A stretch of 64,000 nucleotides of DNA. Origin: Minisyncoccota bacterium. GTDB lineage: Bacteria; Patescibacteriota; Minisyncoccia; Phycocordibacterales; UBA918. The notes beneath the pieces were generated by a model that searched no databases, was not told the origin of the DNA, and saw only the letters and a program-made list of their open reading frames with translations. Positions 1,270-57,789 of this stretch are shown here, piece after piece; the first letter of the stretch is position 1; every line of letters begins with the position of its first letter. Location of the stretch: the NCBI GenBank assembly GCA_041389025.1, contig JAWKSP010000001.1:2-64001 (forward strand), written 5' to 3'. A program made the translations under genes and the position numbers.

Positions 1270-4200
1270 TTAATTTTCAAGTGGTGGTATATCTTCATTA
1301 TTTTCTTTTAATTCATCTAACTTTTCCTTCCCTCCTTCCTCTTTTACTTCTACTTCTTTTTCTGACTCTATTTTTGGACTTTCCTCTTTTACTTCTATAT
1401 TTTCTATATTATTTATTTCTTCATCAACCTCATTCTTACTGATAGGAATATTGTCCTTTCCTTGTCCGGTATCAATTTTGTTTTGTCCTACATCACTATC
1501 TTGTGTCGGACTTTTTTTATTAGTATCTACTTCTAAGGTGGAAGTCGATTCACTTTCCTTAACTTCTATTTCTGGATTTTCAACCATACCCTCACCGATA
1601 TAGTTGTCAGTGACATTACTTGTACTACTGGTACTACTGGAATTATTTATATCTGTACCAACCTCATCACCATCCACTACTTCTTCATCTACATTTTCTA
1701 TGTAATCATCTTCCTTTTTATTATCATTATTACCAACTTCTTTATCTTCTGTTTTTTGATCAACTGATTCACTATCACCAGAAGACTTGTTTGTTTCTAC
1801 CGTACCATTATCCTGTGACTGGCTTTGTTCTAATAATTTTCTTAAATCATCACCATCCACACACACTCCATCCACACACAACTCATCTTTAACTTCTACC
1901 TTATCTGCTTTAAGTTTTAAAACTGACAATACGCCGTCAACAAAATTATTTGCCAATTGTACCAGTCTCTCCCAAACTGTTTCCTCAGATACACCAACCG
2001 TACTACTAGCACTAGCTTTTAGACCATCAATAACTGCCAACTGAATGTCATCTATATATCGATGTCTTATATCAACAAAAACAATCGCCTGCCCAACATT
2101 AACTATTTGTCCGTTTTCAATTACAACTGTCTGACTTGATTTTTTAGCTAGTTGCGCCAACGCTTCTAACTCATCTTCATACAATACTATAGCTTCTGTT
2201 TCTAAGTCTTCATTTTCATAATCAGAGTGGACACATTCTGCCTCATCAAAATTGCCGCCGCCGCTGTTGTAGCAACCATCATTTTGTTTTGGATCATTTT
2301 GTTTTTGTGGCACAAATACTGAATCAATTAGATCATCACCAAACTGATTTATATAGGTTTTAGAGTAAGCTTTAGTTTCATCAAAGTCTTCCAACGCCAC
2401 ACCAATAATACGTCCGGTAGAAGTAGCTTTCATCGCCACTCCAGGAACAGAAGAAAGCATAAGTTCATCACCAGCCTTAATTTCTCCATTTTCGTTGGAG
2501 AGTTTTATTGGTACACGACCAGATAAAGCCACTGGATAACCAGTCTCACCTTTGTTTAAAGACCGATCATCAAAACCAAGTAAGAGCCCTGGTTTAGTTG
2601 AGACTACTCCGATAATTTTATTTTTGTTATCACTATCAGCTCTACCGATAGACAACCCACCTTTAGTGTAAATAACATCACCTGGCTCAAGTATCTCCTT
2701 AGAAAAATACATTTCTGCCAAGTCAGAGTTGCCGGTATGATATGAAACAGCTGAAATCCGTCCGGTAGTGGAAGCATTACAGGAACCATCATTATCAACA
2801 CAAATACCCCCATAACCAACCTGAATACCGGCGTTTTGAGTAGTGGTTCCATTACCAATAGTAAGCATACCGTAAGGATCAACGGTAAACATTGAGGTAC
2901 CGGCGTTTTGTAGATCAATAAACTTAGAAGCGGTAGTAGAAGAAAATGAACCGCCACTGTTACCAAAATTCATCAATAAACCGGTGCCGGTAAAAGCTGA
3001 TGTGTCTTGGAATAATTTTAATAAAGCAGCACTGGTAATAGTGGATGAGTAACCACGAATCGCATTTCCTTGTGTACTTCCTCCTGTTTCAGCAAATACA
3101 CCGGCTGGTTCATAAGAACCTCCCGCGTCCCCAGAAGTTACTCCACGCACACCAAAAGTACGAGCAAAGCCGGACAAAGCAGTATTCTCACCAAGAGTAT
3201 TTGTCCCTTCGTCAGTTTGCACCTCAAGACCCCTAACAATATTTCCATAACTTGTACTATCATTGAGCCTAAGCATACTACCCACCATAGTAGTAGTAGC
3301 CGTGTTAGTGGCATATATATATGAACGATTAGCGTACTGAATTGCACTGGCAGTATTGTTGGTAAAGCTAAAATACTGATCAAGACCAGCAACCCCAGCT
3401 TCAGAGTAATTCAATTTTTCAATTGCTAAACGCGCCTCTGGTGTAGTGGTACCAATTCCAATGTTGCCACTTGATAAGGTAGTACCAGTACCATCTATTC
3501 CAGTACCGAAGATTAGGTTGCCGATATTTAGTTGGTTTGAACCGGTAGTGGAAGCAATATCTACGTCGTAACCGATGACGATGTTGTTAGCGCCGGTGGT
3601 TAGGTTGTCGGCGGCTTGATAACCAAGAAAGATATTGTTGGAAGCTCCGGTTTGTGCAGCATAGCCGGCGCGGTAACCGAGAGCGGTGTTGTTGACGGCT
3701 TGGAAGATACTTCCTCCATAGAAAGATTCGGCTCCGACTAAAACTGATGAGGTGGATTGTATATAAAGACCGGTTGAATAACCGATCATTTCGTTGTAAT
3801 TGCCGGTGTTGTTGTACCCAGAAAGACGACCTATAAAATTATTAGACGTACCGGTATTGTTATACCCAGCGCTTTGCCCATAAATATTATTACTATCTCC
3901 AGTATTGTTTGCTCCAGCACTGGCGCCAAAGATATTATTGTTGGCACCAGTATTGTTGGTACCAGCAAAATATCCAAATATATTGTTTGATAAACCAGTA
4001 TTATTCAACCCAGCTGAAGCTCCGATATAATTATTATAATCAGCATCGGTAGTAGAAGCATAACGACCAGCTTCATAACCAATCGCCACATTTACTAAGG
4101 TTTGGTTATTAAAGGTTGCACCAGCATTTTGACCAAACAAAATAGACCCGTTAGTACTAGAAGCGTAGAGGTAATTAGTACCACCAAAAGCTAAGTATGA

Positions 4201-54173: not shown

Positions 54174-54247
54174 TCCGCGCTCTAGGATTCGAACCTAGGA
54201 CCTTTCGAGTATCAGTCGAATGCTCTAGCCAACTGAGCTAAGCGCGG
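54174..54247 (-). tRNA. tRNA-Ile (anticodon GAU). CCA not encoded.
   Basis: Manual fold: acceptor CCGCGCU/AGCGCGG, D-arm GCUC-AGUUGGCUA-GAGC, anticodon arm UUCGA-CUGAUAC-UCGAA, variable loop AGGUC, T-arm CUAGG-UUCGAAU-CCUAG, discriminator A. Confidence 0.85.
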
Positions 54248-55101: not shown

Positions 55102-55647
55102 TCATGTAGGTAAGTCTAGCTCTTCGCTCAACTCTTTGTATACCACTTGATTATTTTTATCTCTTTTACCTAAATAAACGTCCCATACCAACTTCTCTTC
55201 TTTAAGTATTCGAGGAAGAAAAATTCTATCCACCGGTAATAAGTTTAAATTCAAAATATCATCCGGCGCAAAAAAATGTGGTGTTCGCATTTCTTTTTTG
55301 CCTTGAGGTATTCCCTTGTACTTGATAAGAGTGAAGAAATAGACAGTCATGTCAGCTTGGCTATCCTCACTATCAGGCCAAAAGAAATTTATTTTTGCTA
55401 CCAGACACAAATCCTCTTCATACGCCCTAACCCCCGACTCCTCGAATAGTTCTCTTATAGCAGTTTGCAACAAACTTTCATTTGGTAACTTTTTACCACC
55501 ATAACCGTTCCAGACATTTGCGCTGTTTTTAAGCTGGATTCCTTGCTTGTGGATATTACTTACCTTCTGCGCCAAACAAACTCTTCCTCTTTCATCCAAT
55601 AAATAAACTACCGTGGCCAATTCTGTCTTAGCATTCATTGTATTCAT
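55102..55647 (-). CDS. NUDIX hydrolase
   Basis: Nudix box GGKKLPNESLLQTAIRELFEESGV. Confidence 0.7.
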   Translation of the reverse strand: MNTMNAKTELATVVYLLDERGRVCLAQKVSNIHKQGIQLKNSANVWNGYGGKKLPNESLLQTAIRELFEESGVRAYEEDLCLVAKINFFWPDSEDSQADMTVYFFTLIKYKGIPQGKKEMRTPHFFAPDDILNLNLLPVDRIFLPRILKEEKLVWDVYLGKRDKNNQVVYKELSEELDLPT

Positions 55648-55740: not shown

Positions 55741-57199
55741 AGACAAAACTCTCTTTTGTCTTATCCTTAAAGGTCCGGTCTTTCCCTGGGGTCTGATACC
55801 ATTTCAGAGAATTGAGTATCATCTCTCGTTGCGTGCTCAATTGATACACACAACATCGACCAATTAGCTGTCATTGCAGTTCTGTTACCAGAGTGCGACA
55901 ACGTGTCCAATTGGAATTAATCCACGACCAGCTTCCGCTAGCCGTGCCTTGTTACGACTTAGTCCTTGTTATCGAGTTTACCGTCGGCCCACGCTAGGTG
56001 GGACTTCGGGCACTCCCGACTCCCCTGACTTGACGGGCGGTGAGTACAAGGCTCGGGAACGTATTCACCGCGGCGTTGCTGATCCGCGATTACTAGCGAT
56101 TCCGGCTTCATGAGGGCGAGTTGCAGCCCTCAATCCGAACTGAGGATGGTTTTATTAGGATTTGCTCCACATTACTGTATTGCGTCCCGTTGTACTACCC
56201 ATTGTATCACGTGTGCAGCCCAAGGCATCAAGGGACATGCTGACCTGGCGTCATCCTCACCTTCCTCTCCCGTGAGGGAGCAGTCTCGTCTGACACTTAT
56301 AACAGACAACGAGGGTTGCGTTCGTTTCCCCACTTAAGGGAACAGCTCAAGCCACGAACTGACGACGGCCATGCATCACCTGCCATACACCCTCGAAGGC
56401 TTCTTCGGTTTCCCGAAGCGTGCAGTATGGTTTCTAGCCTTGGTAAGGTTCTTCGCTTAGCTACGAATTAAGCCACATGATCCACCGCTTGTGCGAGCCC
56501 CCGTCTATTCCTTTGAGTTTTAAGCTTGCGCTCGTACTACCCAGGCGGTCTGTTTAACGCGTTAGCTTCGCCACTAAGAGGGTCGATACTCCTAATAGCC
56601 AACAGACAGCGTTTAGGGCGTGGACTACTCGGGTATCTAATCCGATTCGCTACCCACGCTTTCGTGCCTCAGCGTCAAGAATGTGCCAGTAAGCTGCCTT
56701 CGCATTTGGTATTCCCCATGATATCAACGGATTTCACCCCTACACCATGAGTTCTGCTTACCTCTCACACCTTCTAGTTATACCGTTTCGAATGCGGCTG
56801 TAAGGTTGAGCCCTACAATTTAACATCCGACTAATATAACCGCCTACGCACCCTTTACGCCCAGTAAATCCGGATAATGCTCGGGGCCTCTGTATTACCG
56901 CTCCTGCTGGCACAGAGTTGGGAGCCCCTTATTCATGAGGTAACGTCAATAAACTTCCTCCCTCATAAAAGGTGTTTACGTCCCGAAGGACTTCATCCAC
57001 CACGCGGCGTCGCTCCGTCAGGCTTTCGCCCATTGCGGAAGATTCTCGACTGCAGCCTCCCGTAGGAGTATGGACCGTGTCGCAGTTCCATCGGTGGGGG
57101 TCAGGCTCTCACCTCCCCTAGCCGTCGTAGCCTTGGTAAGCCGTTACCTTACCAACAAGCTGATAGCCCGCAGGCCGTTCCAAGAGCGATAAATCTTTA

Positions 57200-57513
57200 C
57201 CCAGCCCTACTTTTTATCTTCAAGCCAACTGGTCTCAATTCTTTTTTTGAGACCTTGTATCGCACTACCATGTTGCTTAAGTTTGTTTTCACGAACTCGT
57301 GCATCACGTTCATTACGATAAGCTTCTGCGTATATCAAAATCCATTTACCTCGCTCTCTCCTAGTAGCTTTATTACTATTAGAATTATGAGAATTTAAAC
57401 GATTTCCTAAATTCTTAGTGAAACCAATATAAATCTCTTTTGTAAGTGAGTGTTGAATCAGATAAACAATAAACATTACCTTGATTGTATCAAAGATAAA
57501 AAGTAGAGCTGGG
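57200..57513 (-). other. Intervening sequence / intron-like insertion in the 16S helix-10 (V2) region, closed by a 21-bp perfect helix
   Basis: Stem strands CCCAGCTCTACTTTTTATCTT (57493-57513, rRNA sense) and AAGATAAAAAGTAGGGCTGGG (57200-57220) pair over 21 bp. They enclose 272 nt that carry an ORF. Confidence 0.7.
57207..57476 (-). CDS. GIY-YIG nuclease-domain protein (homing-endonuclease-like) encoded inside the 16S insertion
   Basis: MFIVYLIQHSLTKEIYIGFTKNLGNRLNSHN fits GIY-x10-YIG...R...H...N. AAGG lies 3 nt upstream of the ATG. Start is taken at M16 of the track ORF 57207..57521. Confidence 0.65.
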   Translation of the reverse strand: MFIVYLIQHSLTKEIYIGFTKNLGNRLNSHNSNSNKATRRERGKWILIYAEAYRNERDARVRENKLKQHGSAIQGLKKRIETSWLEDKK

Positions 57514-57789
57514 ACCATCAAGTATTATTCCGACTTTCGCCGGGTTATCCCTGACTCTTGGGTACGTACCTACGTGTTCCTACCTCGTCTGCCATGAATC
57601 TAAATTCATTCGACTTGCATGCCTCATCCACGCCGCCAGCATTCATCCTGAGCTAGGATCAAACTCTAATTGAAGACAGGTACTGAAAGAAAAAATCTTT
57701 CTGTGTATCTGCGTCTTCTGAGCAATGCGCTTGTACTATTGCGCGCTCGAAGAAGACGATTTACCTAAAGGATAAGACAAAAGAAAGCT

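Follow-up and report, generated by a model that had tools for sequence, protein, structure and literature searches.

A stem-closed insert with a GIY-YIG nuclease gene in a Paceibacterota 16S rRNA gene is probably a copy of a selfish DNA family bounded by inverted repeats

The 64,000-nt stretch of contig JAWKSP010000001.1 analyzed in this work (hereafter, the window) comes from a member of Candidatus Paceibacterota (phylum Minisyncoccota; Candidate Phyla Radiation (CPR)/Patescibacteria) and carries a 16S ribosomal RNA (rRNA) gene interrupted by an insert that contains an open reading frame (ORF) for a small GIY-YIG nuclease. For two proteins of the window, the exact matches in NCBI (MEZ4103706.1 and MEZ4103694.1) are labelled Candidatus Paceibacterota bacterium, a name that corresponds to Minisyncoccota. 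What is this insert, and how is it tolerated within an essential stable-RNA gene? The reading that we prefer, with a probability of roughly two-thirds, is that it is an autonomous copy of a selfish DNA family of CPR bacteria, composed of conserved terminal inverted repeats and a minimal nuclease of the Slx1/YhbQ type. Sequence comparisons show that the repeats and the ORF travel as one unit between the apical hairpins of stable-RNA genes, that its non-autonomous derivatives of about 100 nt retain the repeats only, that filled and empty sites exist among close relatives, and that purifying selection keeps the ORF.

The first-pass annotation of this DNA had described a minus-strand 16S gene with a single stem-closed, non-intron insertion of the intervening sequence (IVS) type, and this description was confirmed by the Rfam alignment, by the stem itself and by the lack of any intron match. 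In the covariance-model alignment, the 16S gene contains one large insertion only, of 293 nt; from one outer repeat end to the other the insert measures 314 nt, and the ~272 nt given previously has to be corrected. The features of the locus are as follows.

55910-57674, minus strand: 16S rRNA gene (Rfam RF00177, SSU_rRNA_bacteria; 1361.5 bits; full length, model positions 1-1533)
57200-57513, minus strand: putative complete mobile element, 314 nt between outer repeat ends, in place of 16S helix h9 (covariance-model alignment)
57493-57513, minus strand: 5' terminal inverted repeat, i.e., the 5' stem arm, CCCAGCUCUACUUUUUAUCUU / CCCAGCTCTACTTTTTATCTT, with the core CCAGC.C.A.TTT kept in 53-54 of 54 distinct elements
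57200-57220, minus strand: 3' terminal inverted repeat, i.e., the 3' stem arm, AAGAUAAAAAGUAGGGCUGGG / AAGATAAAAAGTAGGGCTGGG, pairing with the 5' arm
57207-57476, minus strand: gene for an 89-aa GIY-YIG nuclease of the Slx1/YhbQ (UPF0213) type, ATG at 57476 and TAG at 57209-57207
57484-57492, minus strand: extended -10-like box TGATACAAT, a putative internal promoter, 7 nt 5' of the ATG
57189-57199, minus strand: conserved UAAAG linker and then a vestigial h10 (AUUUAU), which fixes the insertion at h9
57594-57609, minus strand: native h6 hairpin ATGAATTTAGATTCAT, an empty site that is occupied by a related element in locus L090

The closing stem of 21 bp with one U-G pair (57513-57493 with 57220-57200) is present just as it had been described, and it extends to 30 pairs if two mismatches are allowed. 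The region 57190-57525 is predicted to fold very stably (-101.8 kcal/mol versus -64.8 +/- 5.1 for shuffled sequences; z = -7.3), and none of the 100 shuffles was as good. The 3' repeat arm additionally codes for the last residues of the ORF product (EDKK) and for the stop codon. When mapped, the flanks of the insert-bearing region fall at positions 66 and 243 of E. coli 16S, and the window junctions read ...GAUGGU / CCCAGC...GCUGGG / UAAAG-AUUUAU-CGCUCUUGG (slashes mark the ends of the insert), the boundaries CCCAGC...GCUGGG being common to the window element and its relatives at other sites. In the E. coli reference, h9 spans positions 184-193, the CAAAG linker 194-198 and h10 199-219. As the insert precedes the conserved UAAAG linker between h9 and h10 (the latter reduced to AUUUAU at 57194-57189), it occupies h9 and not helix 10, where it had been placed at first. 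Thus, the insert lies at the apex of a variable helix, on the sense strand, and is closed by a stem of at least about 20 bp, as in IVSs.

Most ORF-bearing rRNA insertions of CPR bacteria are of the intron type, and a GIY-YIG homing endonuclease within a self-splicing group I or group II intron, with the mature 16S re-joined, would be in line with this. This explanation is effectively refuted here. Neither Intron_gpI nor any group II model of Rfam matched 57150-57560, even at E <= 10 (chance snoRNA- and CRISPR-like matches only were obtained), and the loop is almost wholly occupied by the ORF, which leaves no room for a ribozyme core. Moreover, in the survey by Tsurumaki et al. 2024 (PMC11270868), which covered 380 16S and 348 23S genes from CPR bacteria and is also the source of the statement that intron-type insertions predominate among those with ORFs, GIY-YIG ORFs were reported in 15 16S and 15 23S insertions, and all of these were unlike group I and group II introns.

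The insert carries a true GIY-YIG gene, and purifying selection acts on it. The product of the ORF matched Pfam PF01541 (GIY-YIG) with an E-value of 5.3e-17 and 62 bits (cut-off 22.6), and the ratio of nonsynonymous to synonymous substitution rates (dN/dS) was 0.15 between the window and locus L010 (0.06-0.47 for other pairs within the family), which argues against a fortuitous frame. Hence, the earlier assignment of this ORF to the GIY-YIG nucleases stands, with the length revised from 90 to 89 aa. An ordinary expansion of the V2 region, with a chance ORF or as an assembly artefact, could draw on the variability of this region and on nothing more; it is refuted by the Pfam match, by the dN/dS value, by the evidence from the wider family and by the presence of the same element in independent assemblies (P0001, with 100% identity, in another data source, and also L090, L010, L011, L091, and L093). 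For the same reasons, a lineage-specific V2 expansion was ruled out. The insert is real and lies far beyond chance.

The protein is a minimal nuclease of the Slx1/YhbQ type and is not I-TevI-like. It is a single domain, and its predicted model (AlphaFold; predicted local distance difference test score, 90.1) covers the whole chain as beta-beta-alpha-beta-alpha-alpha, with no second or DNA-binding domain. The residues Y5, Y16, R26, H30, and E63 of the catalytic set are conserved in it; across an alignment of 35 sequences, the invariant residues are Y5, Y16, G18, T20, E63, and K67; R26 and H30 occur in at least 90%, and N31 is nearly invariant, while no invariant or near-invariant Asn was found past E63. 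A profile search of the PDB gave 1zg2 (E 3.9e-12), 1ywl (4.9e-7), and Slx1 (3e-5 to 7e-4), and with Foldseek the top 12 matches of the model were all UPF0213 or Slx1 structures, headed by 1zg2 and Slx1 (probability ~1.0; template modelling (TM) score 0.53-0.68), with I-TevI (probability 0.47) and UvrC (0.2) in lower ranks. The N-terminus also matches, weakly, the NCBIfam model TIGR01453 for a group I intron endonuclease (E 6e-4). According to Dunin-Horkawicz 2006, 1zg2 and 1ywl belong to the bacterial Slx1 family, a minimal form of the GIY-YIG domain without the Asn, which is seen as consisting mostly of vertically inherited repair proteins, and selfish homing and restriction enzymes derive from the other (UvrC+) lineage.

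The search for relatives combined several sources. Comparison with phmmer against 1.84 billion cluster representatives yielded 117 matches with E <= 1e-10, a protein search gave 35 relatives, and DNA scans gave eight loci from metagenome-assembled genomes (MAGs) of CPR bacteria and at least 80 from metagenomes; in the metagenome scan, 583 of the 600 listed pattern matches were confirmed, and the site counts below refer to the matches listed. Insertion sites were assigned by mapping the flanks to E. coli rRNA and by running Rfam on the loci. In this way, at least about 90 relatives were located at nine or more hairpin sites of 16S and 23S rRNA, in RNase P RNA, or between genes. The relatives share 50-83% amino acid identity, their hosts are MAGs of Paceibacteria, Nomurabacteria, Moraniibacteriota, and Parcubacteria, and wherever the flanks could be mapped they lie inside an rRNA gene on the sense strand, without exception. 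Among the matches listed, about 61 copies are located in helix H63 of 23S (between E. coli positions 1704 and 1770) and 11, the window copy included, in the 5' domain of 16S, which are distributed as follows.

16S h9: the window, L002, L010, L011, L016, L021, L033, and L036
16S h10: L037 and L057
16S h6: L029

Further ORF-bearing copies were found at 23S positions ~130, ~228, ~270, and ~545, and one in the 5' leader of 23S. Six of the matches listed lie outside rRNA. The copy of L005 is located within the RNase P RNA gene, where helix P3 is expected (RF00010, E 9e-26), and that of L019 has the same RNase P flanks (GGAUAA... / element / AGGAAAGUCCGAAC) and was assigned by flank sequence; those of L018, L035, L044, and L064 are intergenic or at the 3' end of a gene and are co-oriented with their neighbours. 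In the RNase P RNA gene of L005, the GIY-YIG element (2968-3280) is accompanied by a second, ORF-less hairpin with the same repeats (3692-3786), and both copies have the same C-A mismatch; because of the inserts, this gene falls under the Rfam gathering threshold (88 vs 100 bits). A similar arrangement is seen in L019, in which the RNase P element (1147-1468) is followed by an ORF-less hairpin of ~47 nt, again with the same repeats. Two 23S genes (L065 and L071) contain two GIY-YIG elements each, of different clades and repeat types, at ~270 and in H63. Degenerate copies, with a split or truncated ORF within a recognisable element, are present in L006, L008 (3001-3335), and L032, and the 23S gene of L008 also holds a group I intron elsewhere. 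Some relatives with 45-50% identity (e.g., P0055, P0094, P0107, and P0132) have lengths of 200-600 aa and carry the GIY-YIG domain N-terminally, and these are either domain fusions or gene calls that read into the flanks.

The repeats belong to the mobile unit. They are ~18-30 bp long, and for the main class, the consensus of the 5' arm over 54 distinct elements is N-C-C-A-G-C-N-C-Y-A-S-T-T-T-T, the cores of the two arms being CCAGC.C.A.TTTT and AAAA.T.G.GCTGG. CCAGC is kept in 53-54 of the 54, and positions 7-11 and 15-18 change jointly on both arms; pair counting revealed double changes at 14 of 18 pairs and a covariation score of 0.566 (0.145 in shuffles). Other repeat classes begin with CCCTCCC, CCGAGC, or CCACACC. 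In the neighbour-joining tree of the proteins, the repeat variant tracks the protein clade and not the insertion site. Thus, the copies at 23S ~130 cluster with copies in 16S h9 (all with CCCAGCTTCACT), those at 23S ~228 with one H63 copy (all with CCAGCACCACT), the RNase P copy of L019 with copies at 23S ~270 (all with CCGAGC), and the copy of the 23S leader with H63 copies (all with CCCTCC), and the copies in 16S h9 split into three separate protein groups. Since the repeat variant follows the protein clade, ORF and repeats have moved together between sites.

These observations also bear on site-specific homing without transposition, in which a free-standing homing gene of each clade would spread only by cutting its own rRNA site in other cells in which that site is empty, followed by repair from the filled version, with the stem serving RNA processing only. 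GIY-YIG domains are the classical nucleases of homing, the weak TIGR01453 match points in this direction, and so do the large site-specific groups (at least ~61 copies in 23S H63) and the long persistence at 16S h9 in the clade of the window. Nevertheless, we consider this explanation unlikely. The 89-aa protein has neither a DNA-binding domain nor the conserved C-terminal Asn of the homing-endonuclease/UvrC lineage, and its nearest structures are Slx1 and UPF0213 instead of I-TevI; one and the same protein/repeat clade is found at different sites (16S h9 and 23S ~130; 23S ~228 and H63; RNase P and 23S ~270), ORF-less copies occupy many further sites, and some copies are intergenic. In addition, the outer repeat sequence is invariant, though an RNA stem would be free to covary. 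The first-pass annotation had offered a mobile homing element as one of its options; its mobility is supported by the relatives, the repeats and the miniature copies, but homing in the strict sense is at odds with the missing DNA-binding domain and the many unrelated sites.

ORF-less mini copies with the same repeats and unrelated AT-rich interiors were found at least 30 times (36-137 nt, most of them ~100 nt). Four or five of them are present in the 23S gene of L001 (938-1040, 1604-1711, 2253-2354, and 3393-3494) and five in L056 (466-567, 615-717, 1800-1901, 2897-2997, and 4263-4386); others were located at 23S ~1106-1245, ~1854-1888, and ~2094-2212 and in both RNase P genes, and there are none in the window itself. 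Two mini copies at different sites of the L001 23S gene are ~93% identical to each other. The repeats of mini copies agree with those of the ORF-bearing copy at 11.3 of 13 positions within a locus versus 8.7 of 13 between loci, and in six cases the agreement within a locus is perfect, among them that of the less common repeat type of L071. The latter locus contains mini copies of both its repeat types. Many 'short unclassified insertions' described for the rRNA of CPR bacteria may be such copies.

Filled and empty sites were compared in the closest relatives. In relatives free of the insert, there is a small native hairpin at the same position, and the element therefore seems to replace the tip of this hairpin. 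The closest locus among the matches listed is L090, in which the protein is 83% identical to that of the window, the same h9 element is present, and the 5' region of 16S is almost identical to that of the window except for the h8 loop. In h6 of L090 (2102-2413), there is a second, divergent element, with CCACACC-type repeats and 36% identity (GAAUG / CCACACCUUUCAG...CUGAAAGGUGUGG / CAUGG), where the window has a plain hairpin (GAAUG-AAUUUAGAUU-CAUGG). L093 carries in its h6 (~2255-2309) a 55-nt ORF-less copy of the repeat type of the L090 h6 element, and h6 is empty in the window, L010, L011, and L091. Such a series of empty, autonomous, and decayed states is as expected for a mobile element. 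The h6 loop of the window bears a likeness to the 3' end of the L090 h6 ORF; as this likeness falls within the reading frame of that ORF, it was put down to coincidence. As for h9, no insert-free allele was found in close relatives, and distant examples only are available (L029, L037, and L057).

Several observations weigh against the preferred reading. No target-site duplication was found at the flanks of 15 mini copies or of the ORF-bearing copies, and we know of no GIY-YIG nuclease that acts as a transposase. The clade of the window, L010, L011, and L090 keeps the element at one site while the 16S of its hosts diverges by 9-15%, and such persistence would be expected from long vertical inheritance no less than from activity. 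The ORF might also rely on host transcription, given that its orientation is uniformly sense. The percentage of paired positions in the repeats is partly circular, as the repeat sequences were picked as paired stems. A motif search for RNase III gave no match in the 64-kb window, which says little about the whole genome. With respect to the putative promoter discussed below, a two-hexamer promoter scan does not flag the TGATACAAT box, and one intergenic relative from a different host has a GGAGG Shine-Dalgarno (SD) sequence in place of the -10 box. The element also encodes no transposase of a known class (DDE, HUH, serine, or tyrosine), its only ORF being the GIY-YIG nuclease gene.

Persistence at h9 is seen in detail when the element is compared with its host gene: between the window and L010 the 16S is 91% and the element 82% identical, and between the window and L011 these values are 85% and 72%. 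The element diverges along with the host in this clade, which indicates long residence at h9. The NUDIX and YkuD-like neighbours of the window 16S gene are not syntenic in L010.

The strong purifying selection, together with the retention of the element in hosts that differ by 9-15% in 16S, might also be read as a sign of domestication, i.e., of a hairpin and a nuclease that serve the host, for instance in rRNA maturation or turnover by cutting of RNA hairpins, or in rDNA stability in the manner of eukaryotic Slx1. The uniform sense orientation would be in line with this, as would the pairs of the repeats that are not Watson-Crick, which are G-U on the sense strand in 30 cases versus 10 for the opposite strand, a bias that fits selection on the fold of the sense RNA. 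An Slx1-like domain fused to a tRNA methyltransferase (Dunin-Horkawicz 2006) hints at RNA roles as well. The distribution of the element makes domestication improbable, and more so than homing: it is patchy, with presence and absence between near-identical 16S genes, degenerate copies occur (L006, L008, and L032), and mini copies proliferate. Furthermore, to our knowledge, no GIY-YIG nuclease acting on RNA has been described.

How the selfish element that we favour would be expressed was considered next to its anatomy. The AAGG noted ahead of the ORF did not hold up as a ribosome-binding site: it is not a credible SD sequence because it lies 2 nt from the ATG and because the 16S of this host lacks CCUCC, and there is no enrichment of anti-SD pairing or of purine motifs upstream of the ORFs of the family (8 of 87). 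At its 3' end (55910-55925, minus strand), the window 16S reads ...GGAUUAAUUCC / ...GUCGUGGAUUAAUUCCAAUU, without the anti-SD CCUCC, which is likewise missing from the 16S of L010; the related L002 has GGAUCACCUCCUUU. Many ordinary genes of the window lack an SD and have a TAnAAT or TATACT box 6-10 nt upstream of the ATG. Because of such genes and of a 16S without anti-SD, the host seems to use largely leaderless mRNAs. The sequence ahead of the nuclease ORF is TGATACAAT-CAAGGTA-ATG. Within 30 nt upstream of the ORF, TGnTAnnnT is present in 37 of 86 family copies versus 6% in shuffles, and TAYAAT in 25 of 86 versus 4.5%, placed 6-7 nt before the ATG in 22 of these 25. A search for a classical -35/-10 promoter revealed one weak match (TTGATA-16-TATTGT), no better than in shuffles, and support was obtained for the extended -10 box only. 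The simplest reading of the box is, we infer, an internal extended -10 promoter that would give a leaderless mRNA for the ORF.

Taken as a selfish element of this type, the insert would be expected to behave as follows. The nuclease, which has no DNA-binding domain, may recognise its cognate repeats or the hairpin or cruciform DNA that they could form, and the breaks made by it would lead to the element being moved or copied into other hairpin-encoding DNA. In the single-copy 16S gene the element could be tolerated because its repeats would pair in the rRNA precursor into a long helix that prolongs the peripheral h9; the predicted geometry is that of a 21-30-bp repeat helix atop h9, as in classical IVSs. 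RNase III would then cut out this helix, as in a classical IVS, leaving a two-piece 16S, or, which is less likely, the helix may be kept as an expansion segment. The protein would be translated from a leaderless mRNA that begins with the ATG and is driven by the internal extended -10 box, and not from the rRNA precursor.

Among known systems, the window element is closest to the CPR insertions catalogued in Tsurumaki 2024 (PMC11270868), with which it shares a CPR host, an insertion of at least 100 nt with a PF01541 ORF, no likeness to introns, and a stem-loop site in a poorly conserved rRNA region; it is a member of this class. GIY-YIG insertions of CPR rRNA were, according to that paper, first reported by Brown et al. 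2015, who are cited there for the general statement that CPR rRNA insertions are removed from the transcripts. Since GIY-YIG ORFs in non-intron CPR rRNA insertions had already been catalogued, the first-pass view of such an ORF in a 16S IVS as unusual was overstated. The catalogue of Tsurumaki 2024 (PMC11270868) does not mention inverted repeats, ORF-less derivatives, copies in RNase P or between genes, the concentration in H63, or the Slx1 type of the protein. In the literature searched, we found no description of such elements in terms of inverted repeats or of miniature inverted-repeat transposable elements and no insertions in RNase P RNA of Patescibacteria, which is not proof of novelty; the transposon-like anatomy of the family appears to be undescribed in that literature.

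Classical IVSs (in 23S of Salmonella, Leptospira, and Coxiella, and in 16S of Helicobacter and Campylobacter) resemble the family in their location at the apex of variable helices, in an inverted-repeat stem of 21-28 bp, in sense orientation and AT-richness, in the presence of an ORF in some of them (S23p in some 23S IVSs), and in related sequences shared between 16S and 23S; an origin as remnants of transposition has long been suspected for them. The 23S IVS of Coxiella contains an ORF and is closed by 28-bp repeats; RNase III excises it, and the rRNA ends are not re-ligated. The 16S IVS of Helicobacter fennelliae, which is located in about the same region as the window insert, has a 24-bp stem and no ORF and shares sequence with a 23S IVS. 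In contrast to the S23p ORF of Coxiella, which encodes a four-helix protein of unknown function and was reported to be decaying and probably untranslated, the ORF of the window family encodes a nuclease under purifying selection; the family also differs from classical IVSs in that its repeats are conserved in sequence across sites and hosts and in that autonomous and mini copies coexist.

The Slx1/YhbQ/UPF0213 proteins (1zg2 and 1ywl) share the minimal domain of ~90 aa and provide the best sequence and structure matches, but Dunin-Horkawicz 2006 regarded them as repair proteins, mostly inherited vertically, rather than as nucleases of selfish elements. The Slx1 of eukaryotes acts as a structure-specific endonuclease (titles of PDB entries refer to 'branched DNA substrates' and '5'flap DNA'), and this is the type of activity that a hairpin-bounded element would need. 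With the GIY-YIG homing endonucleases (I-TevI and the Seg proteins), the window protein has in common the catalytic fold and residues and a selfish life within an essential, conserved gene; unlike them, it has no linker, DNA-binding domain, or C-terminal Asn, it is not associated with an intron, and the family has many target sites. Palindromes of ~100 nt that fold in RNA are also represented by the Correia elements of Neisseria, which are cut by RNase III, and by the palindromic elements of Rickettsia, located inside genes. Like the family described here, they are tolerated in expressed genes through their place and fold and reach many copies per genome. We know of no cognate nuclease gene with matching repeats for these elements, nor of their specialisation for the hairpins of stable RNAs.

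Taken alone, the window element is one more example of a class already catalogued in CPR bacteria. What goes beyond the catalogue is the anatomy, i.e., conserved repeats tied to a cognate nuclease, miniatures, empty and filled sites, and RNase P RNA targets. If this anatomy holds, it would offer a concrete and testable origin for the rRNA IVSs of bacteria and for many of the short unclassified CPR insertions, and the Slx1/YhbQ branch of GIY-YIG proteins, until now thought to be housekeeping, would acquire a selfish function. It would be relevant to 16S-based surveys as well because such inserts alter the length of V2 amplicons. A broader proposal, which we put forward only tentatively, is that the family represents an unrecognised class of prokaryotic mobile DNA, bounded by hairpins and encoding a minimal, structure-specific nuclease of the Slx1 type as its sole protein; it would move by cutting the bases of hairpins or cruciforms and would swap itself or its miniatures for the apical hairpins of the highly transcribed 16S, 23S, and RNase P RNA genes; it may be the active ancestor-type of rRNA IVSs, the origin of which has been unexplained since 1990, and the source of many short unclassified insertions in CPR rRNA.

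Apart from the insert, two features of the 16S gene and its setting should be mentioned. There is no 23S gene within the 64-kb window; next after the 16S gene come a gene for a NUDIX hydrolase (55102-55647) and then a tRNA gene (54174-54247), and the rRNA genes are thus unlinked in this region. At ~56893-56915 (the region of E. coli 16S 515-533), the universal GUGCCAGCAGCCGCGGUAA is replaced by GUGCCAGCAGGAGCGGUAA in the covariance-model alignment, and this sequence is a mismatch to the site of the common 515F primer.

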